A stretch of DNA of 64,000 bases, taken from positions 13,330,001 to 13,394,000 of the forward strand of contig OZ059895.1 in assembly GCA_964057225.1 (NCBI GenBank). Reading direction: 5' to 3'. Every line of letters begins with the position of its first letter. Within the stretch, counting starts at the first letter, position 1. The translations under genes were made by a program, and so were the position numbers. Positions 1 to 35,819 of this stretch are shown here, piece by piece. The notes beneath the pieces were generated by a model that made no database searches, was not told the origin of the DNA, and saw only the letters and a list, made by a program, of their open reading frames with translations. Source of the stretch: Auanema rhodensis. Taxonomy: Eukaryota > Animalia > Nematoda.

Positions 1-1356
1 CAATATAGTAAATATTACGACACTCTTGATAAAAAAATCAAGGATATATCCGGTAAGGACTTCCCTTTCAATCATTGCGATATTGAACTAGAATCCACAT
101 TACGCAAGTACCTAAAACCTCAAAAATTTTTGGGTTTATATGGTGGTGGTCTTGTAAGCTCAAAACCGTCATGTGATCCAGTCTTAGATCCAGATGTGTG
201 CGAAACAGAGGATGTTATCTCTCGTCATCACGAGTTGTCCCCGTATAATTTAATTTGCGTTGATCAGGGAATTGCAAAGCCCTTTATTTATTGGTACTTA
301 AAGAAGAGGGTCGAGACACTTGGTGATTCCGATCTTCTACGTGCTGTTGAGACTTCCAACGATGATTTTTATCGTCTGCATAAATACTTCGTCGCGAAAA
401 AGTATACCGACATGGTATTATCTCAAGAAGCTATTAGATATTTTGAGAGATTGGTAAATTTCTCAATTGAATCCCATATTATTCATCCACCGTTGGATCC
501 TGTTTTCTTATCTTTTGACAGACAATTGGGAATGTCTGGAAATTTAGGTGAAAACTTTTATGGTAACTGGTTGCGGCGTACTCCACTTACAGAATTGGAA
601 GAGACTAAATTTACTGATGTATTACCAGAAATATCGGTTGTTAAACCAATATTTACGTCGACACCAGATGCTACCCAAGACACTACTTTCACCTTTAATG
701 TAAAAAAAACCAAATTTCTCAAATTTTCGTATTTAAATCTATTTGTTGGTGGCGCCTTTTCCTATTATTGCTTAAATAACCTCTATAAACGTTCGTATTT
801 TATAGATTCGCATCACAACCAATGTGTTAATTCTTTGTATAACTTATTATCAGTTCATAATGTATATAACAGTCTCCCTAAATCCATTTGTATGTCTAAT
901 ATTATTTTTAATAATTTATGTAGAAATTCTGTAAAATATGATTTTATATCCTCTACAGTCGCACAACAGGTTCACGTTGATTCAAAATTTAATGCCACCG
1001 CAATATTTTCGGGCATTGCAGCCCTGTTAAGATTTTTGACTGCCTTTCGAATTGACTCAACTGAGGAACTTGTTCCTAATGACTACAACGCCGGTAATAC
1101 CATTAAAGATAAACACCATCCACACACTATGTTCTCAACAACTCTCTTCAACGGTGTTAGAGAATATATCGCTACCAAATTGCGTAAGTCTAGGGCTAAT
1201 GAATCTGACACTTCAGAAAATGTGATCGATGATATCCAAAAAACGTCAGCAACTATCCCAACTCCGATTTTAAATGATACTACACCCTTTAATGATGCAA
1301 TTGAAGAGTATGCCGAATATTTGACATTATATTCTAAGACTAAAAAGGTCTTTTGA
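1..1356 (+). pseudogene. Inverted second copy (3' part, open at window start) of the endogenised nege/kita-like viral replicase ORF
   Basis: Reverse complement of 3115-4470. The protein matches the C-terminus of the 1404-aa ORF except LNDTT/LNNTT and KKVF/KKDF. Confidence 0.9.
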
Positions 1357-1545
1357 AAGATTCCCAGTATGATATATGATATATTATTTTGTAATTACAT
1401 TGTTTTCCTTCATTTTTTCTCATAAAATTGTTCTGTATTATCAGTATTCTTTTATTTTTTGAAACATTTCATACAACTTTCATATTAGCATGGAATTTCA
1501 CTTTCTCGATGTAGCTGAGGTCAGCTACTTTTTCGATAGTAGGCA

Positions 1546-1958
1546 TGTTCCATACGTGTCCTATAAGTAGAGCGATTGACAACGTCAATCGCTTATAAAA
1601 CGGAACATTATAAAAACAAATAGCTGACGCTACATTTGAGAAACAGGAATTCAATGCAATAAAGAACGAACACTTTTTCATATTAAGTTTAATCAAAGAA
1701 AGCCCAATTCAAGCGGAACCAAGTTCCGCGGACCTGATATAACGACTTTTTATGCTCGTAAGGAAAACTATATAAGTTTTCCTTACGAGTCCTTTGGGCT
1801 GCGACTAGGAATCATTATGTAACTTTTATTATTGTAATTTGTATACTTTATCATGAATAAACCTTTCTCTCTATACTCTTTATCATTTATATTTGGAAGA
1901 AAAGAAAGTAATTCCATGTGGTTACCCAGCCGGAACCCTGGGGAACCACCATGGAACG
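1546..1958 (+). mobile_element. 3' LTR (413 bp) of the inverted copy of element E1
   Basis: Reverse complement of LTR 2513-2925. Reads TGTTCCAT...ATGGAACG and is followed by target TAAC. Confidence 0.92.
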
Positions 1959-2047
1959 TAACGTAGAAAATTACATAACTAACATGAAATTGGAAAAAAA
2001 ACAATAACGAGGATAAGTATGTAAATCATTGAATATCAGATATTTTC

Positions 2048-2085
2048 GCTTACGACCATACCACGTTGAAAGTACGCCATCCCGT
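2048..2085 (+). pseudogene. 5' fragment (nt 1-38) of 5S rRNA at the inversion breakpoint
   Basis: gcttacgaccataccacgttgaaagtacgccatcccgt, then an abrupt switch to filler and opposite-orientation spacer. Confidence 0.9.
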
Positions 2086-2289: not shown

Positions 2290-2304
2290 AAAAAAAATTG
2301 AAAA
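2290..2304 (-). terminator. Pol III terminator (T4 then T7-8), repeated after every 5S copy
   Basis: Minus strand TTTTCAATTTTTTTT immediately after the 5S 3' end. Confidence 0.8.
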
Positions 2305-2422
2305 GCTTACGGCACCCGGGATTCCCAAGCCGTCTCCGATCCAAGTACTAACCGGGCCCAACGTTGCTTGACTTGCCAGATCGGACGGGATGGCGTACTT
2401 TCAACGTGGTATGGTCGTAAGC
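2304..2422 (-). rRNA. 5S rRNA
   Basis: 119 nt GCTTACGACCATACCACGTTGAAAGTACGCCATCCCGTCCGATCTGGCAAGTCAAGC...GTAAGCT, nematode-type 5S, followed by oligo-T Pol III terminator. Confidence 0.97.
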
Positions 2423-2512
2423 GAAAATACCTGATATTCAATGATTTACATACTTATCCTCGTTATTGTTTTTTTTTCCAATTTCATGTTAGTTATGTAA
2501 TTTTCTACGTTA

Positions 2513-2925
2513 CGTTCCATGGTGGTTCCCCAGGGTTCCGGCTGGGTAACCACATGGAATTACTTTCTTTTCTTCCAAATATAAATGATAAAGAGTATAG
2601 AGAGAAAGGTTTATTCATGATAAAGTATACAAATTACAATAATAAAAGTTACATAATGATTCCTAGTCGCAGCCCAAAGGACTCGTAAGGAAAACTTATA
2701 TAGTTTTCCTTACGAGCATAAAAAGTCGTTATATCAGGTCCGCGGAACTTGGTTCCGCTTGAATTGGGCTTTCTTTGATTAAACTTAATATGAAAAAGTG
2801 TTCGTTCTTTATTGCATTGAATTCCTGTTTCTCAAATGTAGCGTCAGCTATTTGTTTTTATAATGTTCCGTTTTATAAGCGATTGACGTTGTCAATCGCT
2901 CTACTTATAGGACACGTATGGAACA
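2513..2925 (-). repeat. E1 3' LTR
   Basis: Direct repeat of 10970-11382. Terminal IR TGTTCCAT/ATGGAACG, TATATAA near 2696-2702, AATAAA near 2610-2615 (minus). Confidence 0.95.
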
Positions 2926-3114
2926 TGCCTACTATCGAAAAAGTAGCTGACCTCAGCTACATCGAGAAAGTGAAATTCCATGCTAATATGAAAGTTGTAT
3001 GAAATGTTTCAAAAAATAAAAGAATACTGATAATACAGAACAATTTTATGAGAAAAAATGAAGGAAAACAATGTAATTACAAAATAGTATATCATATATC
3101 ATACTGGGAATCTT

Positions 3115-6100
3115 TCAAAAGTCCTTTTTAGTCTTAGAATATAATGTCAAATATTCGGCATACTCTTCAATTGCATCATTAAAGGGTGTAGTATTATTTA
3201 AAATCGGAGTTGGGATAGTTGCTGACGTTTTTTGGATATCATCGATCACATTTTCTGAAGTGTCAGATTCATTAGCCCTAGACTTACGCAATTTGGTAGC
3301 GATATATTCTCTAACACCGTTGAAGAGAGTTGTTGAGAACATAGTGTGTGGATGGTGTTTATCTTTAATGGTATTACCGGCGTTGTAGTCATTAGGAACA
3401 AGTTCCTCAGTTGAGTCAATTCGAAAGGCAGTCAAAAATCTTAACAGGGCTGCAATGCCCGAAAATATTGCGGTGGCATTAAATTTTGAATCAACGTGAA
3501 CCTGTTGTGCGACTGTAGAGGATATAAAATCATATTTTACAGAATTTCTACATAAATTATTAAAAATAATATTAGACATACAAATGGATTTAGGGAGACT
3601 GTTATATACATTATGAACTGATAATAAGTTATACAAAGAATTAACACATTGGTTGTGATGCGAATCTATAAAATACGAACGTTTATAGAGGTTATTTAAG
3701 CAATAATAGGAAAAGGCGCCACCAACAAATAGATTTAAATACGAAAATTTGAGAAATTTGGTTTTTTTTACATTAAAGGTGAAAGTAGTGTCTTGGGTAG
3801 CATCTGGTGTCGACGTAAATATTGGTTTAACAACCGATATTTCTGGTAATACATCAGTAAATTTAGTCTCTTCCAATTCTGTAAGTGGAGTACGCCGCAA
3901 CCAGTTACCATAAAAGTTTTCACCTAAATTTCCAGACATTCCCAATTGTCTGTCAAAAGATAAGAAAACAGGATCCAACGGTGGATGAATAATATGGGAT
4001 TCAATTGAGAAATTTACCAATCTCTCAAAATATCTAATAGCTTCTTGAGATAATACCATGTCGGTATACTTTTTCGCGACGAAGTATTTATGCAGACGAT
4101 AAAAATCATCGTTGGAAGTCTCAACAGCACGTAGAAGATCGGAATCACCAAGTGTCTCGACCCTCTTCTTTAAGTACCAATAAATAAAGGGCTTTGCAAT
4201 TCCCTGATCAACGCAAATTAAATTATACGGGGACAACTCGTGATGACGAGAGATAACATCCTCTGTTTCGCACACATCTGGATCTAAGACTGGATCACAT
4301 GACGGTTTTGAGCTTACAAGACCACCACCATATAAACCCAAAAATTTTTGAGGTTTTAGGTACTTGCGTAATGTGGATTCTAGTTCAATATCGCAATGAT
4401 TGAAAGGGAAGTCCTTACCGGATATATCCTTGATTTTTTTATCAAGAGTGTCGTAATATTTACTATATTGAAGATAGGTATTTAATCCGTCCGATCTTTT
4501 TATATCAAAATTGTTACAAACGGAGCGGAAAAACCCGGTGTAGTTAAAATCAGATCTTACAATTTCGGATTTAGTATACCCCTCACATAAAACATAAAAT
4601 TCACAAGAAATAGGTGTGGAGGTAGACAAGAAAAGAACCGTTAATTTCGCAAATCTCGAAAGTAATCGGCGCAATAAAATCTGAGTACTAATAGCATAAG
4701 GGTAAAACAGTTTAATAACCAATTTGCCGTTATCATGCAATAGATCGAATGCGGTGGAGATTTCAGCATAAATGAGATCATAGTTATTGTCAGCACGAAG
4801 AAGAGGATTAACAGCTGTTTCAGATATGGCTCCGTCAGCTAAAATAAGTAGTCTGTCATTGGTGTTCTTCTTTATTAATTCAACCATAGAGTTTCGAATA
4901 TCGTCATCAAGCAAATTTGACGATCTTGTTACAGGGTCACAATAGGGAGTTAAACGGTTATCGAATATTAACATGGATTTAGGTCCAGGCACAGCATGAA
5001 TAAAACTGTTAGAGTTATGTAATAAATATTCAGAAAACCCTCCGGGGCTAGAACATAAGTCGATTATATCGACATAACAGAAATCGATCAGCCCAAAGGC
5101 GTGTAATTCGCACAGTTTTAAGGCCGAGCGACAAATGTATCCTCCAGTGCCGATATTAGATGTAGGAGTCATTATGTTTTTAATCAGCTTATGTTTACGA
5201 TTAGAGACATTCTCAAAAGTTTTGTCATAAATGTCTCTGAATTTATCAATCAAAGGAGCGTCGTTACAATCGAACACATCGTCAGATGTTAATACCATCA
5301 AACGGTTCGGACAAACTTTCAAAGCAGAAAAATGACCAGGCGTATAATGAACGTGATATAATTGTTCAGATGCTAGCGTACGAGGAGTATAAAGTCGAAA
5401 CTGACCAGTGGAAGTATCGTGTAAGCAAATCTTAACACGGTATAGACCACTGAACAACTCAATATGCTCATCTGTTCCCCAATTATCAACATTAGAGGGA
5501 TCGTTAATACCGGCTAACAGAAGATTCTTTGTCTTCTCACCGATGTTAGGGGCATGGCTAAGTTTATCACGAATTGATGGTGGACTATCGGTAGTAGCAC
5601 CCGTAAGTCTCAAAGCGTGAAAAAGACAGTCGCCGTCACCAGGAGTGGGGATAATTTCAACGTTACTTTGGCAGGAATGTGAAACCGACACAGATACCGG
5701 TTCAAAAGACGTCGAAGTATCAATAACACCCTCTTCTGCATCAAAATACTCATCAGAATCTTCACCAGATGAACATTCGAAGTCATTAGGCAACCACAAT
5801 TTATATAGGGGATGGTCAATAGTCTTCCGTACTTCGCGATGGACAAGTTGGGAAACCTGTCGGTCAATATCAATATAACCGATATTACGGAAAATCTTTA
5901 TATCATAAAGAGTCCCGCCCAGTACACAATCCCGCCAACCCTTCATCCGAGATGTGTCGTCGCAAACAGTCTGGTCTGACATTGATGACACTGTAAGGTC
6001 ATTGTCATGAGCTTTAGACATGGCGGACAATAGGTTTTCGGTCTTGTCGGAATACTTCATCATGGAGAATAAACGGGTGAACCGGGGAAATAAGGATAAA

Positions 6101-7584
6101 GATCTAGAAATAGAAATGTCATCCGTCAATTCCTTTATAGTCTTAGTTGAACTGTAATTGCTGACATAAATTAGCATATAAACAGTATGAGCCAGTATTC
6201 GGAGAGTATCAGCAGAATGTCGTTCGTCAGAACTGGAGATTGTTTGTCCATTGACTACAACACGACTATCAAGAGAAATACCCATTGACAGGATATTTTT
6301 GACGGTGAATTTACCCTCACCCAAGGTCATACCATGTTTTAACATGTTTTCAAACAAGCTAGTTGATACACAGATATAAGCATATTTCAATTTATTTTTG
6401 GTTTTAAAAAAAGATGAAGATTCATCAAAATCGTATGTACGAATATAGGATTTTTTGTCGGAGTTCAATTTAAAAGTACGCCCGCTAATATGACGGGGAA
6501 TAGAAGTGTCAATCCTTGCAATGTCAAAGAAAAAATGACTCTTAAATTGTAATAGCCCAGCCACCGCATAACTATATAAAGAGGTGGTAGAAGTTAGAAC
6601 AAAAGCTTTTATGATAAAAATATAAGTGTCCCAACGATGAGTGTAACACAATTGAACATCGTTATCAAATGAGAATCTAATATATTCGACTCCAAACTGT
6701 TTATAGCGGGTAAAAGATGCGTCAATATCTGGTAACATACCATTTTTTTTAATTAAAACAACGGGGTCGAATAATATAACTCCGACGGCCCTAATAGCTT
6801 CACAGTTATCTAAGGTCTGAACAATGTCAGCTGGAGAAAGATCATAAACAGAATGTAAAAAGGATACAAAAGGGGCTTTTATCTTACAGTACTGGGAAAG
6901 TTGAGAACAAATATAATTAGAATCCATAGAGAGTATTTTTTTACAATGATAAACTTTATTGCTATCAAAGGAATTATTCACAATCATAGTTGCTTGAGCT
7001 ACGTAATTATTACGTCTAAAAACGTCAGCCGTGTTCACAACTGGACAGCAACAGTGAACGGAGTAAAAGCCACTATTAACAAACTGCATGGGATTTGATC
7101 CTATATCCTTTTGTACTACATGGTATTTACCGCTGGGTGTTAATGTCTTGAACATTTCCAAAGAGCGAAAGAATTGGTATCTTATGTAGTAAAAAGCTAC
7201 AGTGCGTAAGGCACGAGCTAGTGAATGAGGTCCACCATCGGTGTTACTGGTCTCAATTCTAAAACAAGAAAAATTTTTTTGAATGTCTTGTAATTGTTCA
7301 CTAGATAAAATCTGTTGTAATCTAATCAAAATTCGTCCCGAAGAGTCAAAATTAATTCACTTCATACGGTTGTCCAATACACTGGCTTTAACAGCTGCTG
7401 CAACACTACTATTTGGGTTGTTAAGGATTACATTTTTAAGGACGGGATCAAAATTTTTATCCGCTGATACGGATAAAAGAAAGTCTCCCATACATTTATC
7501 ATCTGTTGGAAATTTTTCAGATCGGTAACCGGTGTCGTCCATAACAATTAAGTTATTAGACGAAACGGCCGTGCAGTCATCCAT
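3115..7584 (-). pseudogene. Endogenous viral element: N-terminal part of a nege/kita-like (Martellivirales) replicase with Alphavirus-like MTase/GTase, OTU-like protease and FtsJ 2'-O-MTase; truncated before helicase/RdRp
   Basis: ATG at 7584 (MDDCTAV) is in frame with the 3115-7329 ORF, broken by one TGA at 7357-7359. MTase motifs GGPHSLARALR, KDIGS, VHCCCP..DVFR, LHSVYD. OTU motifs PGDGDCLFHAL..WG..GHF (~5320-5660). FtsJ K-D-K-E motifs RSALKL, DLCSSPGGF, LADGA, VIKLF, SCEFYV (~4575-5150). Confidence 0.9.
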
Positions 7585-7637
7585 AACTACCAGGTGACAC
7601 AATAAAGTGTCAATCTAGTAGAAGGAGAAAAGCAATC

Positions 7638-7887
7638 GACGTTGTCAATCGCTCTACTTATAGGACACGTATGGAACATGCCTAATATCGAAAAAGTAGC
7701 TGACCTCAGCTACATCGAGAAAGTGAAATTCCATGCAAATGTGAAAGTTGTATGAAATGTTTCAAAAAAATAAAAGAATACTGATAATACAGAACAATTT
7801 TATGAGAAAAAAATAAAGGAAAACAATGTAATTACAAAATAATATATCATATATCATACTGGGAATCTTTCAAAAGTTCTTTTTAGT
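7638..7887 (-). repeat. Internal duplication of the E1 3'UTR + pre-LTR hairpin + first 41 bp of U3 (copy of 2885-3132)
   Basis: gacgttgtcaatc...atggaaca-tgcc...ctgggaatctttcaaaag is repeated, with about 7 differences between copies. Confidence 0.92.
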
Positions 7888-8485
7888 ATTCTTCATAATA
7901 CTGGTGTATCTCTGGTAATGGTGATGATCCTAGGTCGTGGAGAAGATCCATAGTCTTGTTGCATAAATCCGTTTTTCTTTCCATTTCTTCCTTGGTGGTT
8001 GCTGGTGATGCCAGAAATATTTGTAGAGCATTTAAAATGCTTTTTCTTGCCTCTGTGGATGGCAGTTCGCTGCAATGTTGCAGGCTCCATTCTTGATAGG
8101 CCGAATGGGTCTCAGCAATAATCCAGTTTGGTGTCTGCTGTTCTGGTGAATCGCAACTAGGTGAATAACCTAGTTGGTCCCTTAGTTCAGCAATGGCATC
8201 TCGGATGACTCCTGCTGTGTTGGTCCATGGTCCTATGCAGTGGTCAACCTCCGACAGTTGATCCTTGTCGTATTGGTAACATAGGATTTTGAGCGTTTCA
8301 GTACTGGTGTTCGCTCTTGTTAGTCCTTGAACTAACTCTTTCAGGATCTTCTCTTTCCTGGGGCGGTTGGCGATGGTATTGGCGCCTAGCTGCTTCAATT
8401 CTCTTACTAATAGTTGAATTGAAAGCCATCTCTTTTTGGCCATCATGAGGGGAATTTCGATGGCTTCAGGGAGTTGGGTGGACAT
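7883..8485 (-). CDS. E1 accessory ORF3, ~200 aa helical/coiled-coil protein of unknown function
   Basis: Intact ATG-stop ORF. Aligns by eye with the ORFs ending at 13575 and 57409 (P..M.K..W..I..L..EL.QL; LRDQLGY/LREDLGY; P.W...E.H). Confidence 0.75.
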   Translation of the reverse strand: MSTQLPEAIEIPLMMAKKRWLSIQLLVRELKQLGANTIANRPRKEKILKELVQGLTRANTSTETLKILCYQYDKDQLSEVDHCIGPWTNTAGVIRDAIAELRDQLGYSPSCDSPEQQTPNWIIAETHSAYQEWSLQHCSELPSTEARKSILNALQIFLASPATTKEEMERKTDLCNKTMDLLHDLGSSPLPEIHQYYEEY

Positions 8486-8850
8486 TGTTATCTTTGTTAC
8501 TGTTTTCTGTCCTTTTTATCCTTTTTAAAACTAGGTCGGTCTGTTCCTTCCTTTTTGTCGCCTCCTTTTTGACCAGTTAGGTGAAAAAAAATGATGAAGA
8601 TTGTTGATTAAAACTTTGCAGTGATTTTTGAAAGATTCCAAGTATGATGTATAATTTTATTTTGAAATTTTGGTTATTGATACAATATTTTTATGAGAGT
8701 GAAAAAATAAAAATGTACAATAATTTGTGTAGAATTTTATGTCTTACTTAAATGAGAAAAAAAAATCATATATAGGTTCAAGTTTAGATGAAAATTATGA
8801 AAATGGTATTATACTTTTTGTGATTTTTATATAGAAATTATGGATTTTTA

Positions 8851-9175
8851 CTATTGTTCTAGCTTCTTACTTGTAGCCCCAATAACTGTTGACGGTCTTT
8901 TCTTATGGATGACTGGTACTGTTGGTGCCACGAAGTTTGGGTCCGGGATCGGACTCTTCGAAACTCTCTTCTTCGGCTCTGTTACTGGTATGGTGCTGTG
9001 ATACCTTATCGGCACATGATAAGGCTTTGCTGGCGTTGTAGGAGAATTATCTTCTAATCCCAATGCCAATTTAAGTGCTGAACTCCATTTCTTAATTGTG
9101 GGTGGCTCCTTCTTCCGTTCCTCATACAATTCTTTTCTTGCGTTTTCTTCTATTTTCTCTGATAGTTTGGTGAAT
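8851..9175 (-). pseudogene. E1 remnant of the Pol C-terminal tail
   Basis: KELYEERKKEPPTIKKWSSALKLALGLED...RPSTVIGAT matches the E4 C-terminus QELYEERRKEIPTTKRWSSALKLALGIED...RPSTVIGAT. Confidence 0.85.
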
Positions 9176-9589
9176 TTCGAGGAAGAGGAGAAGAAAGAAT
9201 AGCAGTATTTGGGTATGAAAATGATATTTGAGAATAATCTTTACAAGGGGAAGTATTTGTGCAAACATAGCTAGAGCTTTTGATAACGTTAGAATTGCGT
9301 TTAGGAGTTTGTTTGTTAATAGACGTTTTAATTTTACTAAGAGTAATAGCGTGGCGAGAAGTTTTGATAGCTGTTGTGCCTATTTTTTTTTGCGGGGGTA
9401 CCCGGTATAGCGGGTGGTTTCTTTGCAGCAGTAGGTCGGCGCTTCGTGTCCGGCTCATAAACATTTGGAGGTCCTCTCTTTCTTTGATTCTGCTCGAGTA
9501 CTGGCTCGACGTGCGTATCATTACCGGGGGGCTGCGCTCTGTGGATTTGTTTTATCCTGCGGAGGATTTTTACTCTTCGAGTCCGTCAT
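9170..9589 (-). pseudogene. E1 frameshifted remnant of the Gag N-terminal disordered region
   Basis: ATG at 9589 lies in the same context as the E2 gag ATG. QRKRGPPNVYEP resembles E2 RRKRQPPATYSP, and SSPLPRNSP resembles E2 SSPPLRNSP, in different frames. Confidence 0.65.
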
Positions 9590-10950
9590 CTTGTTGGTTT
9601 TCCTGGAAAGGAAATTATTATACCAACGATGCGAAACTTATAAAAATATATATACAACGTGAGAGGCAATATGGGGTTGTATGCGTGACGCTTGCTAGGG
9701 GGCCAGCCTGCAGCGAATCTTCTAACGGAGAATTGCTCAATCGGGTACATACACGGGCCTGTGACCGGTGCGCCCTTTCTAGGATCAAGTTCCCATCTCT
9801 CGAATAGGCGTGAAATATACGACGGTGATCTAAGCAGTATTCCCTTTCAGTCTTTCGACAAGATTAGGTGCTCAGGCCTCGAACATTCACTTTCCCAGAC
9901 TTCTCTTGCCTATGAAAAATTACAGAAATCGCTCCCTTAACGAAATTCTGCTTCCCTGATTTTTCATGGTGAGACCACTCTAACACTTTCATTCTCGACT
10001 AATTCTGTAAAGGGATCTTCAAAATCAGGAATGCGTACGTCTTATATCAAAAATAGTGGTTGCCTCCGCTCAGTTCTCGAGACAGTCTGGTATTGCTTCT
10101 CACGGGCTACTTTTAGGATCAAAATGCAAAATTGTAAATCTTAGGTTCGGGATTCAGATAAAAAATTTCAAAATTATTTGGCTGTTTTCTGGGTTATATT
10201 AGGAAGAAGAAAAAAAATAATAGTAATAAGAGAGGGAAAAAGATAAAATTTAAAAGAAGATAAAAGAAAAATAAAATAGGAATATAGTAGGAATATAGTA
10301 GGAATATAGTACTAGTATAGAATAGTTTTGTACATAAATATATATATATAAATGAGTAATACATTTTAAAGGATAGAATAGAAATTAATGAATTTTAATA
10401 TATATAAAACAATGAATTTTTTGATGATTCATGAAAGAAATTAATTCATTTTTGATTCAAAAATTGTTTGAAACTTTATAACAAAATTTTATGAGAGATA
10501 GAATAGATTTTGATTAAAAAAACAGAAAAAGAAAAGATTGACAGAAAAAAAAAATATCGAAATACCTTTCTTTGAATGAATAAATATAAAAGAATTTCAA
10601 ATTAATTTATGATAGTTATAAACAAAGTTTTTCCTCAAAAATGAATGAAAGATCTTAGAATATGGATAAAAATCGAAATGTTTCTTTTAAATGAATGAAT
10701 ATAAAATTTCAAAATTAAGTTGTTTCAAAATATATCTTTTTAAATAAATGTATATAAGATTTCAGTATTAATTTATGAATCAAAATCAAAATAAAGTTTT
10801 TTTGAATGAATGAAATAAAGAAGAGAAAGATTTCAAATTAAATTCATATAGCATAATCGAAATATAATTCTTTAATTAGATGTATGAAAGACAACAAAAT
10901 TAAATTTATGTAGCGAAATATGGTTCTTAGAGATTCGTCGGTTATAGACG

Positions 10951-10969
10951 AATCTCGGCGGAACCTCCA
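10951..10969 (-). promoter_or_regulatory. Primer-binding site for tRNA-Gln (E1)
   Basis: TGGAGGTTCCGCCGAGATT abuts the 5' LTR and is complementary to the eukaryotic tRNA-Gln 3' end (AATCTCGGTGGAACCT-CCA). Confidence 0.85.
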
Positions 10970-11382
10970 CGTTCCATGGTGGTTCCCCAGGGTTCCGGCT
11001 GGGTAACCACATGGAATTACTTTCTTTTCTTCCAAATATAAATGATAAAGAGTATAGAGAGAAAGGTTTATTCATGATAAAGTATACAAATTACAATAAT
11101 AAAAGTTACATAATGATTCCTAGTCGCAGCCCAAAGGACTCGTAAGGAAAACTTATATAGTTTTCCTTACGAGCATAAAAAGTCGTTATATCAGGTCCGC
11201 GGAACTTGGTTCCGCTTGAATTGGGCTTTCTTTGATTAAACTTAATATGAAAAAGTGTTCGTTCTTTATTGCATTGAATTCCTGTTTCTCAAATGTAGCG
11301 TCAGCTATTTGTTTTTATAATGTTCCGTTTTATAAGCGATTGACGTTGTCAATCGCTCTACTTATAGGACACGTATGGAACA
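10970..11382 (-). repeat. E1 5' LTR
   Basis: Direct repeat of 2513-2925, adjacent to the PBS. Confidence 0.95.
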
Positions 11383-11707
11383 GTTACATCTAAATTCTTC
11401 GATGATATCAAATCTTATGAGCTCCAAATACAATAAATTAAAAAAGGTTTCACAGTTGTATAGTGTTAAAACAATGTTTGTTTCAATAGGAAATAGATAG
11501 AAACAGTAAAGTTAAGATGAAGGTTCATAAACTACTGGTTTATAACTGTAATATAGAAATAAGATTGAAGATATTTTGATGCCTTGGGTTGAGCTATCTA
11601 AGTAAAACTGCTAGAAAATTAAAAACATTTGTTACGGAAGAGATAAAATTGAAAATCAGCTGCATTGCGTACTTTCAACGTGGTATGATCGTTAAAAAAA
11701 ATTGAAA

Positions 11708-12973: not shown

Positions 12974-13390
12974 CGTTCCATTTAGATTCTCAATGGTTCC
13001 AAGTTGAGAGATCCAAACAGACTATGAGAAGATGAGTATGATTTTAAATATAAGTGTGTAATGTAAGGTGAAATAAGAAACAAAAGATGAAATGTATAAA
13101 GGTTTATTGTTCGCATTATAATATAATTATACAAAGATTAAAGCTAGAGTTAAGAAAGAGAATATAAAGAAGATAAAGAGAAAGTAAGATAATGAGATAA
13201 TGAGATGCCTGAGTCTTGAGGACTCAGGTTTATATATCCATACAACTCCTACTCAGTTTACACAAATTGTTACAAAGCTTATAAAAAGTGCATCTAAAAT
13301 ATTCTCAGAATTGCTTAAAAACTATCTGCCTTAGTTTAATAATAGCAGCTGCCATGGTCAGCTGCTTTCCTTTGAGATATGTATGTAACA
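12974..13390 (-). repeat. E2 3' LTR
   Basis: Direct repeat of 24880-25296; sense ends TGTTACAT...ATGGAACG. Confidence 0.95.
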
Positions 13391-13574
13391 TGCCCCAACG
13401 GATACAAGTCAGCTGACCTCAGCTGTTATATGCAAATAATAATTAAGAGAGAAAAATAAAAATTAAAAAAAAAATGGCATGAGATAAAGCAAATTTTTTC
13501 AACAAACTATTGATAAAGAGAAAAAATTTTAAGAGATAGAATTTTATAAATGATTTAAACCTTTCCTCTCTTCT

Positions 13575-14219
13575 TTAATCCGCCAGTTGGTCAATTTCCT
13601 GGATCATTTCCGTCATTGATGCTAGTCCAAGCAGCTCCATTGTTCTGATGGTTTGGCTAACTGCTTTTGCCTTACTTTTTGATGCGGACATGTTGGTAGT
13701 CCTTTTTTTCAGTAGTTTTTTGATTACTACTGATAGGTCTTGCCCTATCTCTATCCACGATGCTTCTTCTTCTGTTCCGCAATTTCCTACAGCTTGTTGT
13801 GTCATCTGTGTTGTCCACGTCGGCATTGCTTTGTAGATGTCAGCTGTGGTCTGCGTTCTGGCGGGTTGTCCCAGCATTATGTGTCGGATTCTGTTCTCTT
13901 TCTGGCTGAGAGAACATCCTTCTGTCCATTTCTTTTGATGCTGGCGAAGCTCCTTCAGATCGTTTTCCTCATAGTTTTTGGTTTTCTCCTCCAATAGTTC
14001 CATCATAAATAGGATGTGCTGTGTCTTCTTTTCCAATTTGCTCGTTTGGAGGCTTATTATTGGTCCTAAGTTGGGCTTCATGCAGTTGATAGGTAGAAGA
14101 CCTTCACGAAGGTTTTCTACCTCTATCCATTCTTGTTCAATAGTGGTCGCTAGAGGGACCAGTGGTGTTGGAGTTGCGAGGAATGTAGAGAGTGTGACGT
14201 TGGCGAGAGAGGAGGTCAT
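13575..14219 (-). CDS. E2 accessory ORF3 (~214 aa from MTSSLAN), unknown function
   Basis: ATG at 14219; homologous by eye to E1 and E4 ORF3, in the same position after pol. Confidence 0.72.
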   Translation of the reverse strand: MTSSLANVTLSTFLATPTPLVPLATTIEQEWIEVENLREGLLPINCMKPNLGPIISLQTSKLEKKTQHILFMMELLEEKTKNYEENDLKELRQHQKKWTEGCSLSQKENRIRHIMLGQPARTQTTADIYKAMPTWTTQMTQQAVGNCGTEEEASWIEIGQDLSVVIKKLLKKRTTNMSASKSKAKAVSQTIRTMELLGLASMTEMIQEIDQLAD

Positions 14220-14422
14220 TTTGAGTAAGAAAAGTGTTATTGAATTTTTCTCTATCAAAATTTTCTCTTTATATAGTTTGTTTTTCAGTGATTGTTACAA
14301 TTTGTTAAAATTAAAGGATAGAAATTAGAATTTCGGTGGTTTTTGATCTATGTCTTATGTTTAATGTACTATACGAAAGAAAGAAAAATTATTTTTACAA
14401 TTCTACGATTTTTGTTAGTTAA

Positions 14423-17400
14423 TTAAAAGTTTCGTACTTGTTCTCCTTTGTTTTGCGTTGGAGATTCATTCTGCTGCTTTTTGCTTTGATCCGCTTTTCC
14501 ATGTAGTTCCAATTCTCCATTACTTCTGATTTCTTCGTCTTGTGTTTTTCTTTTGGGTTGTAGTTTAACATGATACGGGCGTGAGTTTTCATTTCCTATT
14601 CCTAGTGCTGCGGCAAGTGTAGTGTTCCAATTTTTGATTGCTGGTGAGTTTTTGTTTCTGTCCTCAAATAGCTCCTTTCTGTTTTCATTCTTGAATTGAT
14701 CTCGTAGCTTTTCGTATGTTTTTGCGTTATTATCTTCTATATCGTTTTGATTAGGACCTTCTTCTTGAGAGAAAGGTGTCAGCTGTCTGAGGTCCTCTTG
14801 AATTCTGTCGATTGTTGTTGATTCATTTTCTAATTGTATATTAGAATTTGTTATTCTTCTTGCTGTAGCAAGGTCGTCAGGTGTTTCTGAATTATGTTCA
14901 ATTTCTTCTTCGTTTACTCCTCTGTTATTCCCTGTGATAGGTAACAGTTGCGCGAGAGTATCTGGACTGCCTGTTGGGTAACAGTTGTTGTTATTTTCCG
15001 TATTATTGGTTTGTTCCCATTCATTCAGATTATTCCAACTTGCTTCTTCTTCTTCTTCTTCTTCGTTTGCTATGTCTTGGTCCTCTTCTTCCTCTTCTTC
15101 ATTATTTCTTGTTGATATAAGATTATCGTCTGGTGGAAAATAACGTATGTTATTTTTGTGAGCTTTTATAATATTTCCATCTTGGTCCGTTATGCTGATG
15201 TTGTTTCCTTCAATTGTCACTATCCGGTAAGGTCCATCTCTTCGTATTTGTAATTTGTTGCTTGGGTTCGCTCTTTGTACAAATACTCGATCTCCTATAT
15301 CCAATATTCTTTCTTTTGTCCTATGTGCTTGATCGTATTTCTGCTTCATTCTTTCTTCGTTGGTGGCAATCTTTTCCTTGACTTTTTCTTGAATATCTCT
15401 TAAGTTTTTGAGCTGATCCGTGATATTTTGTTCTTCCGGTGTTTCCAAGTTTTTGTCAATGGGTAGACGTGCTACTTGTCCAAACAAACATTCGTATGGT
15501 GATGTTTTAGTGGTGGCGTTTGGTAATCTGTTGAGTGTAAAAATAATCTTCGGAAGTATCTTATCCCAATCGTTTTGTTCGTCATTAACGTAGGCTGTTA
15601 ATGCTTCTTCGATCGTCCGATGCAATCTTTCTACTTGTCCGTTAGCGTTTTTGTAATACGGCATAGTAGTGTGGTGTGTAGTTCCAAAATTACTGCACAT
15701 AGTAGTGAAATCGTTTGAAATAAAATTAGATCCATTGTCTGTGATGATAGTAACAGGTGGTCCAAAAACATAAAAGAGATATTTTTCGATAGCTGATATA
15801 ATTTCTCCTGATGTTTGTCTGATTAGCGGAATTGCGATAATCCAATTTGAAAAAGAATCTTGAATTGAAAGAACATATCTGTTTTCTTGTTCTGTCCTAG
15901 GTAATGGTCCGAGTATATCCATGTGTACTCTTTGCCATGGTTTTGTTGATGTTGGAAAATTTTTCATTGGTTCCACCGTTGCTTCGTGAGGATTGTTCTT
16001 TCTTTTTGCACAAGCAAGACATCTGTTGATGTAGTTTGTAATGTCTTCTTGCATTCCAGTCCATGTAAATCGTCTTGATATTGAGTCCATTGTTTTGTTT
16101 ATCCCTAGATGAGCTCCGAGTGTCGGATCTTCATGAAATTTCTTCATAATTGGATTAATTATGTGTTCTTCTCGTGGTAAAATTGTTCGTGGTACTTGTA
16201 GGCTTCTTTTTGGTTTTGAGTATAGTACATCGTTGTACACAATATATCTGTCCGTCAGTTGTCGTCCAGCTGTATTGTTCTTTATTTTATCCATAGTTTC
16301 TTTTATCCAATTTGATTGATTCTGAACTGATCGAATATCTGCTATCGTGAAGGTGTTTATCTGATGAATAGTATCTTCCGCCGTTTTTCTTTCGTTTTTC
16401 TTCTTTGCTGGTGGTTTTGCTTCGTTGATTTCATTTTCAAAATATCGTGATAATGCGTCACATACACTGTTTAATTTTCCTGGTCTGTAGATAATTTCAA
16501 TATCGTATTCTTGTAAAACAATTTGAAATTTTGCTAAACGACCTATTAAATCCTTTCTAGTCATTAAACTAGTGAGTGGTCTATGGTCCGTGATAATTTT
16601 GGTTGCTGTTCCTAGTATGTAGGTGCGAAATTGTTTGACGGCGAATGTAAGAGCTAATGCTTCTACTTCTATTGGTGGATAATTCCTTTCAGCTTTGTTG
16701 AGTTTCCGACTAGCAAAAGCTATTGGATGTAATGGTTCTTGATCGTCTTTCGCTTGAAGTAGTACAGCGCAAACTGCTATCATACTTCCATCACTTTCAA
16801 TAACATATGGTCGCTTCGGGATTGGTGCTTGTAACACAGGTGCTTGAGTCAATGTTTTCTTCAAAGTATTAAAAGCAGTTTCTTCTTCTTCTGTCCATTT
16901 GAACGGAGTGTCTTTCCGAGTGAGGTTGTAGAGTGGTGTTGCTATTCCTGCAGCGTTCTTTATGAACCTTCTGAAGTAGTTTACTACTCCCATGAAAGCT
17001 CTTACTCCTGTTGTTGATTTTGGTTGGGGATAATCTTGTATTGCCTTAATTTTATGTGGGTCCGGTTTAATTCCTTCTTGTCCAACTATGTATCCTAGAA
17101 ATTTTACTTCCTTTCTTGCGAATGCGCATTTCTTCAGTTTTATTTTGAATCCTATTTGAGTTACTGCTTCCAAAACTTCTTCAATATCTTTTAAATGTGC
17201 TGTCGTAGATTCAGAGATTAACAGTAAATCATCTAGATATACGAATAGCTTGCATTTAACCATTGATTGCAGGTATCGTACTGCGTTTTGAAAAGTATGG
17301 GGTGATCCACATAATCCCATCGGCATTCGACAATATTGATAAGTTCCACTTGTTGTTGTGAAAGCTGTAAGATGACGATCTTCTTTCTTAAGAGGTATTT

Positions 17401-20400
17401 GGAAAAATCCAGATACTAAATCAAAGTTGCTGAAGATCCTTGCTCCAGCGGCCAAATCTAGGATGTCCTGTATGTTTGATATAACATATACTTGTTTCTG
17501 AGTGATTGCATTCAAAGCTCGAAAGTCCGTTACAAATCTGTAAGTTTTGTCTTTCTTCTTCACCAAAATTACTGGACTAGTTGTCATTGAGTTTGATGGT
17601 TCAATGATTCTTTGTTGTAGCATTTCTTCTATTTGTTTCTCCACTTCTTCTTGTTGGGAGAGTGGTATACGATAAGTAATTTTGAATGATGGTGTTTTTC
17701 CTGGCATGATTGGAATGGAGTGTTCAATTGGTCCTAGGAAGAGTCCGATATTTCTATCTTCGTTGAGAAACGCTTGTTTATGTAGTAAAATTATTTCTTT
17801 CAGTTGCTGTTGTTCGATTTGTGAGAAGCAGGCTTCTGAAAGGTCAAGCTCATTGATGAAATTGTCTGGGAAATATGGCAGTTGTTCTTCCCATCGAGCT
17901 TCTGGAGGTATGTATTGTCCTTCGTATTTTTCTTGGTTGTCCTTTGGTATCGCTTCTGCTATCCCTATTTCTTGATTCATTTGAATTTCGAGTGGCTGTT
18001 TGCATATGTTCGTCGCGTAAATTTGTACTCCGTATCCAGTTGGCGTAAATATAGTAGGCGTGAAAGAGAGTTTGTTGCCTGGTTTCTTACAATCTAGAAA
18101 CGCCTGTTCATAGCTTTCTGGATCGTGTACTTCTAGCGTGAGCGTTCTTGTTTCTCCTGGTCTTAGCGTTTTGTTTTCTAAGCTAACCACATATGCTTTC
18201 GTGGTCTGGTGTTCCCACGGAGATGTTTCTCGTGCTAGTGGAACATGTGTTGTGCCGATAACAATTGTTTTATCCAGCGGTCGAAGTGAGGTGTAAATTC
18301 CTTGTTGATGTAATGCTTCCATGAAGTCTATTCCAAGTAACACTGGTGCTGGACAGTAGTTATCTTCTGCTACATAAAATTTGTGTTCTGTTTCTGTTGT
18401 TCCTATTGTTATGAGGATCCTTGTGTATCCCATAAATGAGAATTTAGATTTATTCGCGACTATCGCTGTTGTTTGTTTTAGTACCATCGTTGCAGCGGGC
18501 AGTTGTTTGAAGGTGGATTCTCGCATGTATGATGCTGATGCTCCCGTGTCCCATAGTGCCTTAAAGATGTGATTGTGGATTGAAATCGGGACAAACGGTA
18601 ATTGTGATCCTCCTATGTAGTTTATGTTTTCTTTCTTCATGCTTGTAGGGAAATAAGCTTCATAAATGTGTTCAGGAATTGGTGCTGAAGGATCATACAA
18701 TGTGAGTTGACAGCTGTTGTGATGGTTGTCGACGTATGGAGCGGACGGAGAAGGATGAGATGTTTCTGTTCTTGTGTTCTCAGTTGATAGTGGTTGTAAG
18801 TATTCTGCTTCCCATTTGACATTGTTGATGGGTATCCTTGAACTACATGCGTATATTTTTATTATCCAGGTGGCGAGTGTGATTATGCCAATTGTTATGA
18901 TGATTGATCCAATGATAGCAAGTACGCGTAGTGTCCAGGTTTGAATCTTTTCCCATATTGGTGACAGAAAGTCAAACATTTTCCAAGTTATAGCTTCTTT
19001 TGTATGTTCGTAGCTGAGTAGTAAGCTGCTGGCTGCTCCTGCTGTTAGGGTAACAGGGTTCATGTTAGGAATTGATCTTTGTTTGATTACAGGTTTTATT
19101 CTTCCTGGTAAAGTAGCCTGTAGCGTTGCTAAGCTGGATCCATATGATATTGCTAGTGCCATAGGAAACGTTGATTCTGTTAGGTTGTTGAAAATGTTGC
19201 TTCCATTAAACTTGATATGTTCTAGGTTGATTGATCCTAACTCGTCGATGTATGCTGGTGATGTTACATTTATTGATTGGTTATTATTAGTCCATTGATC
19301 GTTTTCTTTCCAGGGATCCTTGATTGTGAATCCGCATGGTATGGCATGTGCCATCGGTGTGAGGTCTCTTGTACCTGGTAGGATGAACAGTTGGCCGTGA
19401 TGTTCCGTTTCGACTGGGGTTTCCAGAAAACACGTGCTGTTGACTTTGTGATCGCGGTATGTTTTTGTAATTTGAATTGGTGTGCATGGCATTACATAAA
19501 TTAGTTTATCATTTATGAATCTTGCAGATATATCCTGTCGTCGTAGCATTGTACGCATCCCTATAGTAGGATTTATTTGAAGAATAGCCCACCAGGTAAG
19601 TAGTTGTTTATTTTGTACGTGGCAGATGTTGTTTCTGTTTGTTGTGAACGTACGTATGATATCATCTTCCAGATTGGTAGTGGCATATTGTAGATGAGAT
19701 TGCGTTTCTTGTTGATGAAGATGTTCATTCCATTTTTGGACGATATCGTTCTTAGCTTTAAGGTAGTCTACGTGAGCTTTCTTACCAATATGTGATGATA
19801 TTTCTTCAGGTGTGCTGCGAGTGGTAGTGATAGATCTTTTTGTAGTTCTTGGAGGCGGTGACTTGGTGAGTGATTCTTTCCTATTGTATTCCTGGCTTGA
19901 GGTGATTGTGATTGGGTTTGTAGTAATATTGAATGTAGATTGGGGGGTGGAGAATGATTGTGTTGGTCGATGAGTGGTGAATATAGTTGTGGTTGTTGTA
20001 GGTGTTGTGGTTGTTGTTGATCTGGGTCTAGCAGTAGTAGAAGTAGTAGTAGTAGTAGTGGTAGTAGTAGTAGTAGTTGATGAAGACGTGGGTATTGTTG
20101 GTTTGGGTCTAGTTGTTGTGGATATATGTGTTTTGGGTGTGATTGTCGAAGTGATGACGTTCCTTATGGTTGTAGGCTTAGGGGTCGTGGTAGTGGTTGT
20201 AGTAGTAGTTTGTAGGGGGGTCGAAGTGCTTCTAATTGTGGTTGCAAAAGGTCGTGTTCCGGGAGTACTGATAAGGGGTAGATAATGATTATAAAATTTT
20301 TCACTATCCTCTTGTGTAATGCTATAATTTGTAGGATTTCTTTTCCGGAAGCCGTAGAATATATCGTCGCCATCGAAGATAACTGTGTAGTTTGGCAGTT

Positions 20401-23623: not shown

Positions 23624-24861
23624 CGTTGGTATCCTGTAAGGAAATTTGTTATATCCAACGTGTGCCAAAATAATTTTATATATAGAAAAACGTAAAGAAT
23701 AATGTTGGGTTTGTGTGCGCGATTCTTATGAAGGTAGCTAGTCTTGCAAGTAATCTCTTTACCAATATAGCTCGTCCGGGTCTAACACAGGTTTGAAACT
23801 AGTGTGCCTTTTCGAAGGGACAAGTTCTATATTGTGAAAAAGGCATGAAATGAAAGTTAATAGTTCGCCAGTCTTTTGGGACAAGGATACAAAATAGAAT
23901 TTTCGCAATCATTTCATTTTCCCAGACCTCATTAACCTATCTGAGTCACAGGTATGTCAGCTGCCTTCTGCATCCTGCTCCCTGACTCTATGATGGCGAG
24001 ACCACTCTTAGTATTTATATCAATGTGGGGCAGGTTTCAATTCAAAAATTCTCTAATTATTTCATGGGGCGTACGTCTTATCCTGAGTGTCGGCCTCCGC
24101 TCGAGTCTCTTGAGTGTCTGGCATTATTCTTAACGAGGGGGGATGGTTTTTGCGTATGAGTTAAAACTTATTGATTAATTTAATTATTTTTCGTATTTTC
24201 AGGTGCTAAGGTAATCGGAATTTGGATACGCTGCGCCTAATAAATATTTTTACTGTCGTGTTTAACACGGGATTTCTTGTTTATGAAATTACGGGGGGGG
24301 GGGGGGGGAGGGGTGGGTTTATGAGAATACAGTGTAGTAGCATAAGAATAATAGTTTTATAAACGAACATAAAGAAAATAATGAAAATATGGTATGATAG
24401 GATGATTAAGATAGTATGATAAGATGAAGATTCAGATAATATGATAAGATGATTAAGATTGAGAGGTATAGAAGCAATATTCTTTTTTATTTCTTAATTC
24501 TAAATTAATTTTATAAAGAACTTAACTATTTTTGTTCAAAAAATGTGAAAATAAACTTATAATTCTTAGAAAAGTTAATTATTGAATTTGAATAATTTTC
24601 GTATATAGGATTTTGGATAGAGAGAATGATAAATGATATAAGTACTCTTATGAATAATTGAAAATGATTTATGAGAATATAATGAATGGAAAACTGAGTT
24701 TTTGTAAATAGTTTTTGGATATAATTTTTAATAGAAAAGTTTTAGAGTTTTTAAGAAAATATTATAAGCTAACTTTAAGAGAGAGATAAGATTTTTAATT
24801 GAAAAAGAGATGTAGACGGTAGCGCTTGAGTTCCTTTACGAGATCCTGTCCAAAAGGAAGG

Positions 24862-24879
24862 ATCTCGGTGGAACCTCCA
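24862..24879 (-). promoter_or_regulatory. Primer-binding site for tRNA-Gln (E2)
   Basis: TGGAGGTTCCACCGAGAT directly after the 5' LTR. Confidence 0.88.
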
Positions 24880-25296
24880 CGTTCCATTTAGATTCTCAAT
24901 GGTTCCAAGTTGAGAGATCCAAACAGACTATGAGAAGATGAGTATGATTTTAAATATAAGTGTGTAATGTAAGGTGAAATAAGAAACAAAAGATGAAATG
25001 TATAAAGGTTTATTGTTCGCATTATAATATAATTATACAAAGATTAAAGCTAGAGTTAAGAAAGAGAATATAAAGAAGATAAAGAGAAAGTAAGATAATG
25101 AGATAATGAGATGCCTGAGTCTTGAGGACTCAGGTTTATATATCCATACAACTCCTACTCAGTTTACACAAATTGTTACAAAGCTTATAAAAAGTGCATC
25201 TAGAATATTCTCAGAATTGCTTAAAAACTATCTGCCTTAGTTTAATAATAGCAGCTGCCATGGTCAGCTGCTTTCCTTTGAGATATGTATGTAACA
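24880..25296 (-). repeat. E2 5' LTR
   Basis: Direct repeat of 12974-13390. Confidence 0.95.
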
Positions 25297-34785: not shown

Positions 34786-35122
34786 CGTTCCGTTATGCTC
34801 TCACGTCGATCCTATAGACCAATAAAGCCTACAAGATGAGTGTGATAGTATTCCAGATGTAGCGGTAGATAAAGAGCATAATGGATAAACATAAGACTCG
34901 AGAAAGAAAGGTTTATTATGTCTACATGATTACAATAAGTTATATAAGTCTACATAAAGATATAAAGTGAAAGAGAGCTAAGAAAGGAAGACCAACCATC
35001 CATAGTCATTCCATAAGGCAAAGCTGAAGTCTGTGTTCCATATGAAGGGCGTGTCGTCCTCTCTCAGCCTCATGTCGTCTGATTCTAACCCGCCTGCTAC
35101 GTATTGATTTCCGAATGGAACG
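34786..35122 (-). repeat. E3 3' LTR
   Basis: Direct repeat of 45915-46251; sense ends CGTTCCAT...CGGAACG. Confidence 0.95.
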
Positions 35123-35819
35123 TGCCATTTTTTCGAGTTTATGTCGCGTCCTCGCGAATAGCAAAATATGTGGCTTGTTTCAATCGTAGCAGAAGGTTTA
35201 GTTTTTAAAAAATAAAAATTACAATGTTAACATAAAAATAGTAAAGATAAATTACAATATAATGTTAAACAATATTATCTGAAAAGAATTTAATAAAAAT
35301 TATTTGAAAATACATGAATATTAAGGAATAAAACAATCTTTTAGAATACCAGGGCTATATTTTGTCAGCGAAAGTGCGCAAAATAGCTTTTTAGGCACGA
35401 CGCTGCATGTCTAACTTCTTTGAGTATAGAGAAACGAGAGTCATGCTATATTATCGATGGAGCTAGCATGTTTCCTCAGCGTATTCAAAGCGAATTGTAA
35501 TAATAAAAAAAATTAAACTAAATCCCATATAATTTCCGGAATTGAATCATTAACTACTTGATAAGGACTGTTGCTCAGATGATTATGCAATATAATGTCT
35601 CTTATCTTTCATTTCTTCTTTATTTACGGGAAATTATTTGAAATTGATGAAGTTTTATAATCATATATGCTTTGAAACTGAAATGCTTTTTGATTATTAG
35701 CTTACATCTCGTCTTACTCAAGTTTTTCAATGATATAATAATATTAATAGCTCTGGTTTTTTAAAAGAGTGTTGATACAAAGTTTTACAATAATTTTATC
35801 AATCTCGAAATTATTTCTT

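Follow-up and report, generated by a model that had tools for sequence, protein, structure and literature searches.

Capture of a nege/virga-like virus segment by a non-autonomous LTR element in a 5S rRNA gene array of Auanema rhodensis

The window, i.e., the whole 64-kb stretch of DNA that was analysed, hosts several insertions in a tandem array of 5S rRNA genes. One of them, E1, is an LTR element interrupted by a viral segment, and its own parts and target are the following:

2513–11382, minus strand: E1 chimera, a non-autonomous LTR element with viral insert; 8,870 nt, or 4,117 nt minus cargo and duplication
10970–11382, minus strand: 5' LTR, 413 bp, ends TGTTCC...GGAACG
2513–2925, minus strand: 3' LTR, exactly equal to the 5' LTR; differs at 6 places from the family-majority LTR contig
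2509–2512 (left) and 11383–11386 (right), no strand: GTTA target-site duplication, at a site also used by element E2
10949–10969, minus strand: primer-binding site (PBS), starting TGGAGGTTCC, the same in E2 and E3
8869–9174, minus strand: remnant of the pol C-terminus, 63% identical to E4 pol over 102 aa
7883–8515, minus strand: accessory ORF2 of 210 aa between stops, with 30% identity to E4 ORF2
7638–7890, minus strand: capture scar, an internal copy of the 3' UTR, the polypurine tract (PPT) position and the first 41 nt of the LTR
2926–3135, minus strand: 3' copy of the 3' UTR and PPT position, substituted at 6 sites relative to the family majority, of which the one at 3123 may be viral
2304–2422, minus strand: 5S rRNA gene, 91 nt downstream of the E1 3' LTR; one of 42, in an array with a 529-bp unit

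An earlier reading made from the letters alone (the sequence-only reading) had described identical LTRs and a clean target-site duplication at the 5S genes, and both are found: the LTR pair shows zero differences across 413 bp, and GTTA, present once in the empty 5S unit, flanks E1 on each side. The PBS shared with E2 and E3 presumably corresponds to tRNA-Gln, while the PPT is short and only weakly enriched in purines. Comparison with E4 and Pfam searches revealed no gag, env, RT or integrase core in E1, and Pfam gave no match for ORF2. E1 thus has LTRs, PBS and PPT, has lost gag/pol, and its form is repeated in the genome. The carrier, 4.1 kb long, derives from GAG-ENV-POL elements and is non-autonomous. 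The majority of the family contigs assembled in Logan run through the site of the missing gag-env-pol at backbone depth, so the short gene-less form is the common one. These contigs also show that the family is polymorphic; certain E1 alleles, e.g., at 2811 and 8471, also occur in a minority of them.

GAG-ENV-POL elements lie in the same window. In E2 and E3 alike, a single ORF runs from gag through a gB-like region, protease, RT and RNase H to integrase, i.e., the order gag, gB-type env, pol; E4 has the same order from the gB-like region onward, its gag lying beyond the window edge. The gB matches fall under the Pfam cut-off, and PF24664 matches lie above it in E3 and E4. The best named relatives are rhabditid nematode sequences. 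E4 is the closest element to E1 in the window (85–89% over the LTR ends), yet it belongs to a separate family.

The viral cargo lies between the LTRs on E1's own strand and comprises:

3133–7637, minus strand: viral cargo (4,505 nt), the 5' portion of a nege/virga-like replicase genome
7585–7637, minus strand: 53-nt leader that is probably the viral 5' UTR; of its first 10 nt, 7 match the LTR
7357–7359, minus strand: in-frame stop at codon 76; the preceding 75 aa are homologous to the N-terminus of the relative P0025
6067–7356, minus strand: alphavirus-like capping methyltransferase region, in which H, DxG and DxxR do not vary across 11 aligned sequences
5317–5643, minus strand: OTU-like protease region; Pfam E 0.02, below the cut-off, aligning with the corresponding motif of the viral relative P0002
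4576–5139, minus strand: FtsJ-like 2'-O-methyltransferase; Pfam E 5.7e-16

The proposal of a nege-like replicase segment in sense orientation is borne out by viral homologues, the FtsJ match and the shared strand; the best matches of the ORF are viral replicases rather than cellular proteins. The ATG at 7584 is preceded by 53 nt and the contig of a relative has a leader of 52 nt, in agreement with the suggestion that the cargo starts near the viral 5' end. The premature stop reported earlier is likewise present, and 1,413 open codons follow it. Pfam gave no direct match for the capping methyltransferase region, which was assigned from 454 homologues at E<=0.001, mostly 2,000–3,000 aa long, the four best of which contain helicase and RdRp; we take the invariant H, DxG and DxxR to be the capping methyltransferase motifs. 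The cargo is about 30% identical to full viral replicases. In Drosophila River Almond nege-like virus (P0003), Tohsystermes virus (P0010) and Hubei virga-like virus 8 (P0001), methyltransferase, OTU-like and FtsJ regions are colinear with it at 24–31% identity; the cargo differs in stopping before helicase and RdRp, and it has no structural genes. Two of ten homologues looked up are named, and both are viral. A cellular or DNA-virus origin of the FtsJ part, to which weak Atlas and PDB matches pointed, was rejected because viral replicases are colinear over 950 aa. In a methyltransferase tree made by a quick method from 60 of 61 rows (P0025 was too short), the cargo groups with the unnamed Logan proteins P0002 and P0006 and with no named virus (SH-aLRT 96, long branches). 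A word-based protein search returned zero relatives among 7,994 scored candidates at near length and one among 3,334 at longer length; no relatives of the cargo methyltransferase were found in viral_contigs, and none of P0025 in metagenome_contigs. Host DNA runs also contain a second viral sequence, about 83% identical to the cargo and about 3.5 times as deep; an 11-nt match between its loose end and E3 was dismissed as chance-level. None of the runs listed as containing the sequence was RNA, and two runs guessed to be RNA gave no contigs on 3060–7700, which is not informative on expression.

Capture of the viral segment by the LTR element is real. In three of four DNA runs, from three studies, the cargo is joined to element sequence in host DNA: Logan contigs run through the 3133 junction, with 40 letters lying in the element, and extend 30 letters beyond the 7637 junction, one under the 31-letter rule. 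None of the contigs listed spans the whole of E1. The cargo is identical in X1 and X3 over 3093–7667, in at least five pieces of X8 and in four 151-nt pieces of X10; its absence from X10 had been suspected and is ruled out by these four pieces, and no presence/absence polymorphism is claimed. No cargo variants occur in contigs from the three studies, contigs being assemblies from which rare variants drop out. The backbone-to-cargo ratio of contig depth is 34–51 in X1, 17–20 in X3, 14–23 in X8 and 4–14 in the low-coverage X10, ratios that are uncalibrated by any single-copy gene and express contig depth, not copy number. In each run, cargo depth is the lowest or near-lowest among the sequences compared. 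With a contig depth 14–51 times lower than that of the carrier in the three better-covered runs (X1, X3 and X8), the hybrid looks low-copy; the ratio spreads about threefold across these runs, and the copy number of the cargo may vary.

The sequence-only reading had noted an internal duplication with about 7 differences, and 2885–3135 and 7638–7890 indeed differ by 7 substitutions and 2 single-base indels. The probable origin of this structure, and the one we favour, is a single recent round of reverse transcription in which the 5' 4.5 kb of a nege/virga-like virus was captured via two templates into a gene-less element of the 5S array. Capture would have occurred in a particle that an autonomous GAG-ENV-POL helper had made. 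Minus-strand synthesis would have copied U3, PPT and 3' UTR from one element RNA (A), switched where ORF2 ends to the viral plus-strand RNA and run off the viral 5' end, after which the nascent strand would have re-annealed to the U3 of a second element RNA (B) via a 7-of-10 microhomology. RNA B would be needed because RNase H had already degraded RNA A there, and 251 nt would thus have been copied twice; the product would then have inserted itself some 90 nt upstream of a 5S gene. Same-strand capture with copy-choice recombination is a published model, as far as the available text of the sources goes (PMC5177903; 10.1101/127498). On this view, the duplicate copies differ because family members A and B did, and their differences are not a clock. 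Haplotype A would comprise the alleles at 2932, 2984, 2988, 3060 and 3087 together with the six LTR alleles, and haplotype B the alleles of the upstream backbone and a 32-nt gap at 10008.

From these differences and the stop, it had been argued that capture was older than insertion. This dating is not upheld, given that a second template is expected, divergence is uneven, the cargo is without frameshift, one stop is unremarkable and cargo depth is low; the two co-packaged templates offered at the same time as an alternative fit better. Against the family majority, the chimera's 3' part shows 12 differences in 620 nt and the backbone upstream of it at most 25 in 3,327 nt (Fisher p 0.01), as two templates would produce. 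The backbone carries eight homopolymer indels against the family majority, whereas the cargo ORF has no frameshift in 4,450 nt; among homopolymer runs of at least 6, 7 of 13 in the backbone are off the majority length and 0 of 9 in the cargo ORF are frameshifted (p 0.017). Over the time span permitted by identical LTRs, the expected probability of one stop reaches as much as 0.52. Counted against the single-round capture are the split of substitutions between the copies, 6 vs 1 (p 0.125) or 6 vs 3 with indels (p 0.51), neither being significant, the threefold spread of the depth ratio, the fit of one stop to 0.5% post-capture divergence as well, and a second partial copy within the window (1–2085). 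In X1, the alleles 3060 and 3087 of the 3' copy sit at about cargo depth (13.3, from one bin), so no separate donor of template A is seen.

An earlier capture, followed by mutation build-up and at least one further transcription and retrotransposition in trans with resetting of the LTRs, is unlikely. The hybrid could, by its sequence, move again: all cis elements (LTRs, PBS and PPT) are retained, its length of 8.9 kb is packageable, below E2 (12.3 kb) and E3 (11.5 kb), and the carrier family was evidently mobilised in trans. Were the 6/207 difference a clock, zero differences in 413 bp would have a probability of 6e-6; the 3'-copy alleles look private in X1, and depth ratios differ between runs. 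Also in favour of such remobilisation is the partial copy just mentioned:

1–2085, plus strand: inverted near-copy of 2385–4470 (chimera 3' end and 5S flank), with 4 substitutions and 1 indel, followed by an 11-nt filler at 2086–2096

At the 2430 position it has the alternative 5S flank allele, and inside the element it shows three differences. Against this, its inverted 5S flank and filler call for either an event at the DNA level or an artefact, and the X1, X3 and X8 contigs lack its alleles at 3122 and 3195. The filler resembles neighbouring sequence, and 1–2085 looks like a fold-back, real or artefactual; an inverted repeat at the start of a sequence is typical of fold-back or amplification chimeras. 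The frameshift-free cargo ORF set against eight backbone indels, the low cargo depth and the uniformity of the cargo in contigs of three studies, with the reservation on rare variants given above, speak against remobilisation as well. In retroviral vectors, direct repeats of 110–700 nt are lost with the intervening sequence in 16% to >90% of cycles, according to the available text (PMC3187697); such deletion would tend to lose the cargo, which lowers the chance of remobilisation and does not block it. The GTTA duplication cannot count insertions because another family (E2) uses the same target site, which leaves flanks uninformative, and the observations bearing on the number of insertions are the low cargo depth and the one adjacent inverted partial copy. 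Of the claim that the chimera retrotransposed in trans with its cargo, integration in trans is supported, since E1 encodes no RT or integrase core; re-jumping of the hybrid stays a proposal.

It is also rather doubtful that the abundant 5S-targeting gene-less family acts as a recurring RNA-virus trap, with more than one capture of this viral lineage and cargo re-retrotransposed with an envelope-bearing helper and spread among loci, possibly among cells or worms. The 83%-identical sequence would, in that case, be an earlier, already amplified capture.

Less probable again is a single older insertion in which gene conversion within the 5S array kept the LTRs identical, with copying or loss at the DNA level (unequal crossover, fold-back inversion) and no new reverse transcription. 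The tandem 529-bp array with its several insertions, the adjacent inverted copy with a filler similar to nearby sequence, and the varying cargo depth relative to the family are in line with it; conversion would, however, tend to draw the LTRs to the abundant majority LTR, whereas the two share 6 differences from it, and the cargo is without frameshift. Misassembly, or contaminating viral cDNA joined to repeats, is very improbable: the array is repeat-rich, the window starts with an inverted repeat, the 7637 junction is crossed by 30 letters only and one run may be the assembly source, but 0.81–0.90 of sampled words are found in nine runs of three studies and the junction contigs show no differences between runs.

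RNA-virus EVEs are usually explained by copy-choice capture by LTR elements, and natural cases are mostly decayed. IAP-LCMV recombinants are said to have been described by Geuking in 2009, on the same strand and with a copy-choice explanation. For the nematode GAG-ENV-POL Ty3/gypsy 'errantiviruses', Sacco et al. 2022 is reportedly a cited source. In the available text on these elements, which have an HSV gB-type envelope, the gene order is that of E2 and E3 (PMC13524379); E1 is linked to such elements by its pol tail and its ORF2, both related to E4, and differs in missing the gag, env and pol core. The main text of that paper does not use the terms 'rDNA', 'target site' or 'non-autonomous' (PMC13524379). 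As in E1, eBxnv-1 of Bursaphelenchus xylophilus, a nodavirus RdRp in an LTR element, has plus-strand virus sequence between LTRs with PBS and PPT and is a coding-defective, low-copy nematode element; its available description also gives no SNPs across four carrier strains, proposes copy-choice recombination and demonstrates expression (PMC5177903). According to the same text, eBxnv-1 is a Bel/Pao element with a 1.7-kb nodavirus ORF, LTR identity over 132 nt only and no other full element copy (PMC5177903), unlike E1, a Ty3/gypsy derivative from an abundant family, in which the cargo is 4.5 kb of nege/virga-like sequence, the LTRs are identical over their full length, and a TSD, a 5S target and a legible 251-nt duplication scar are present. 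LTR-associated EVEs of Aedes aegypti similarly have virus on the strand of the LTR element and a copy-choice explanation; in the available text, they are described as scattered among pieces of TEs within piRNA clusters (10.1101/127498), in contrast to the whole carrier of E1 in a 5S array. In titles and abstract openings, a search to which most subscription papers lay outside, no report was found of a re-retrotransposed RNA-virus/LTR chimera or of a nege/virga-like nematode EVE.

Retrotransposon-captured EVEs are thus already known, and E1 is an unusually well preserved one. Because its two LTRs, target duplication and two junctions are all retained, the sequence can be read for the succession of template jumps and for the requirement of a second RNA, and both are testable against family haplotypes. 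The cargo records an unnamed nege/virga-like lineage that likely entered the germ line of a rhabditid nematode, perhaps twice. If further copies were found, E1 would count as a transducing element that occurs naturally and carries non-retroviral cargo.

Capture of a viral segment by an LTR element, as proposed by the sequence-only reading, is confirmed by the viral homology of the insert, by identical LTRs and by junction contigs in 3/4 DNA runs, and the event is unusually legible. The features concerned are as follows.

2513-11382, minus strand: E1, the LTR-element/virus chimera; 413-bp LTRs identical, GTTA duplicated
3133-7637, minus strand: viral insert (cargo) of 4,505 nt; 53-nt leader, ATG at 7584
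1-2085: inverted copy, reverse complement of 2385-4470; 4 substitutions, 1 indel
12974-25296, 34786-46251 and 56845-64000, minus strand: three further GAG-ENV-POL families (E2, E3, E4), all oriented alike, each inserted 51-90 nt upstream of a 5S gene

Regarding the cargo, 454 proteins match it at E<=0.001 in a full HMMER search (best 7e-123, 31% identity); the four best matches are 2,379-2,555 aa long, with helicase and RdRp, and 2 of the 10 looked up are named, as a nege-like virus and Tohsystermes virus. The cargo is colinear with the related protein P0002 across methyltransferase, OTU and FtsJ. Its ORF shows a stop at codon 76, then 1,413 open codons, and the 75 aa ahead of it match the N-terminal end of P0025 (196 aa, from a Logan contig of 1,004 nt), which is its closest relative (68% over 117 aa) and a further member of its unnamed virus lineage. 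Since the replicase of a relative starts at base 53 of a 10,350-nt contig, the start of the cargo probably lies at or close to the viral 5' end, and the cargo would represent under half a genome. In a quick tree it groups with two unnamed proteins, the lack of an RdRp allowing no family placement. Exogenous virga-like viruses with FtsJ are reported from plant-parasitic nematodes (PMC12770441).

The carrier, i.e., E1 minus the cargo, has a primer-binding site directly after the 5' LTR. Gag, env, RT and integrase core were not found in E1, which keeps a pol tail 63% identical to E4 and an ORF2 30% identical to that of E4. This accessory ORF2 (7883-8515) stays open in the backbone (7630-11382), and E2 and E4 likewise have a second ORF downstream of pol. 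Without cargo and duplication, E1 measures 4,117 nt. Run contigs span its gag-env-pol deletion point at backbone depth; therefore the short form, a cargo-free non-autonomous family of 4.1 kb, is abundant. The backbone/cargo ratios of contig depth (34-51 in run X1, 17-20 in X3, 14-23 in X8, 4-14 in X10), uncalibrated against single-copy sequence, hint at a low-copy chimera; contig depth is not copy number. The chimera is devoid of 32 nt at 10008/10009 present in the majority family contigs, a marker for haplotype B.

On either side of the cargo lies a copy of a 251-nt stretch comprising 3' UTR, PPT position and LTR start (7 substitutions and 2 indels between the copies), and U3 and the viral leader match at 7/10 nt at the return point. 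During minus-strand synthesis, RT would leave the element near the ORF2 stop, copy viral RNA up to the viral 5' end and return to U3 at this match. Because the template behind RT is degraded by RNase H (PMC3187697), copying these 251 nt twice would require a further element RNA, and we infer such a second RNA for the repeat. A single and recent event involving three RNAs probably made the chimera. Two observations count against two templates: the substitutions split 6 vs 1 between the copies (not significant), and the alleles of the 3' copy seem limited to cargo depth in X1, so that the donor RNA behind the 3' copy is unseen.

Differences between the duplicate copies had previously been taken to date capture before insertion. 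Had the copies diverged after capture, comparable decay would be expected in the cargo. Taking the best-supported matches and the commonest (majority) form of the carrier family as reference, the backbone shows at least 8 single-base indels among the matches listed; homopolymer runs of 6 or more are altered in 7/13 cases in the backbone and 0/9 in the cargo ORF (p 0.017). Divergence from the majority is also uneven: the 3' UTR copy together with the LTR differs at 12/620 positions, against no more than 25/3,327 in the upstream part (p 0.01). The dating is not supported. Stop-creating changes make up about 4.6% of substitutions; P(one stop) reaches 0.52 within the age permitted by identical LTRs, and 1.45% divergence gives 3 expected stops (P(<=1) 0.20), which is still compatible with the one stop seen.

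Since the carrier is non-autonomous, even the initial integration of the hybrid took place in trans, and to that extent the sequence-only reading holds. Later retrotransposition of the chimera is unlikely. In retroviral vectors, repeats in direct orientation and of such length frequently undergo deletion together with what lies between them (PMC3187697), and further cycles would thus erode the cargo. DNA-level dynamics of the array are a still less probable explanation. E1 and E2 share the GTTA target site, and a clean TSD is thus no discriminator between independent insertions and array rearrangement. The inverted copy, joined via an 11-nt filler within a truncated 5S gene, contains the inverted 5S flank, which implies a DNA-level inversion or a fold-back artefact; the fold-back (1-2096), whose filler resembles neighbouring sequence, is either a real end-joining scar or a library artefact. 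Its alleles at 2430 and 3087 are common elsewhere, and those at 3122 and 3195 are missing from X1, X3 and X8 contigs, which drop variants. The inverted copy is no evidence of retrotransposition. One run may be the source of the assembly, but an artefactual chimera is highly improbable, with 0.81-0.90 of sampled words present in nine runs (3 studies) and contigs in 3/4 DNA runs (3 studies) that span the 3133 junction by 40 letters on the element side, extend 30 letters beyond 7637 (one below the 31-letter rule, the point at which a contig built from 31-mers would stop as it runs into a repeat) and show zero differences from the window. X10 contains four pieces identical to the cargo at a depth of about 3.

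Capture of RNA-virus sequence by an LTR element is already known, and E1 is a further case. In another nematode, eBxnv-1 (PMC5177903) is the same kind of object, and same-strand LTR capture has been reported at scale in Aedes (10.1101/127498). At title and abstract level, no report of a re-retrotransposed RNA-virus/LTR chimera was found.

The window contains 42 5S rRNA genes in a 529-bp tandem array. Four LTR elements break up the array; every one is on the minus strand and sits 51-91 nt upstream of a 5S gene. In both E2 and E3 a single long ORF covers gag, a gB-like fusion region, protease, RT, RNase H and integrase; in E4, whose 5' part lies outside the window, the same order is seen from the gB-like region onward. 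This is the domain order of the GAG-ENV-POL errantiviruses known in nematodes (PMC13524379). Among named proteins, E4 pol is closest to those of Heterorhabditis (54%), Caenorhabditis auriculariae (50%) and Auanema (69% over part), which makes a rhabditid nematode the likely host. The uniform placement of E2, E3 and E4 near 5S genes resembles targeting of Pol III promoters by elements that carry an envelope. The LTRs of E2 and E3 are identical or nearly so and end in CG, not CA; both elements have 4-bp TSDs.

A search at 80% likeness returned gap-free pieces from X3 and X10 that share 81-87% identity with 6566-7564 (82.8% for the pooled X3 pieces). Third codon positions hold 35 of the 40 differences listed, out of a set with 105 more, a bias like that between two strains of one virus evolving under purifying selection. 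The depth of this second viral sequence in X3, 1.8-3.7x that of the cargo, was also recorded. A second endogenisation is suggested, and this sequence is the best lead for repeated capture and amplification by the carrier family.
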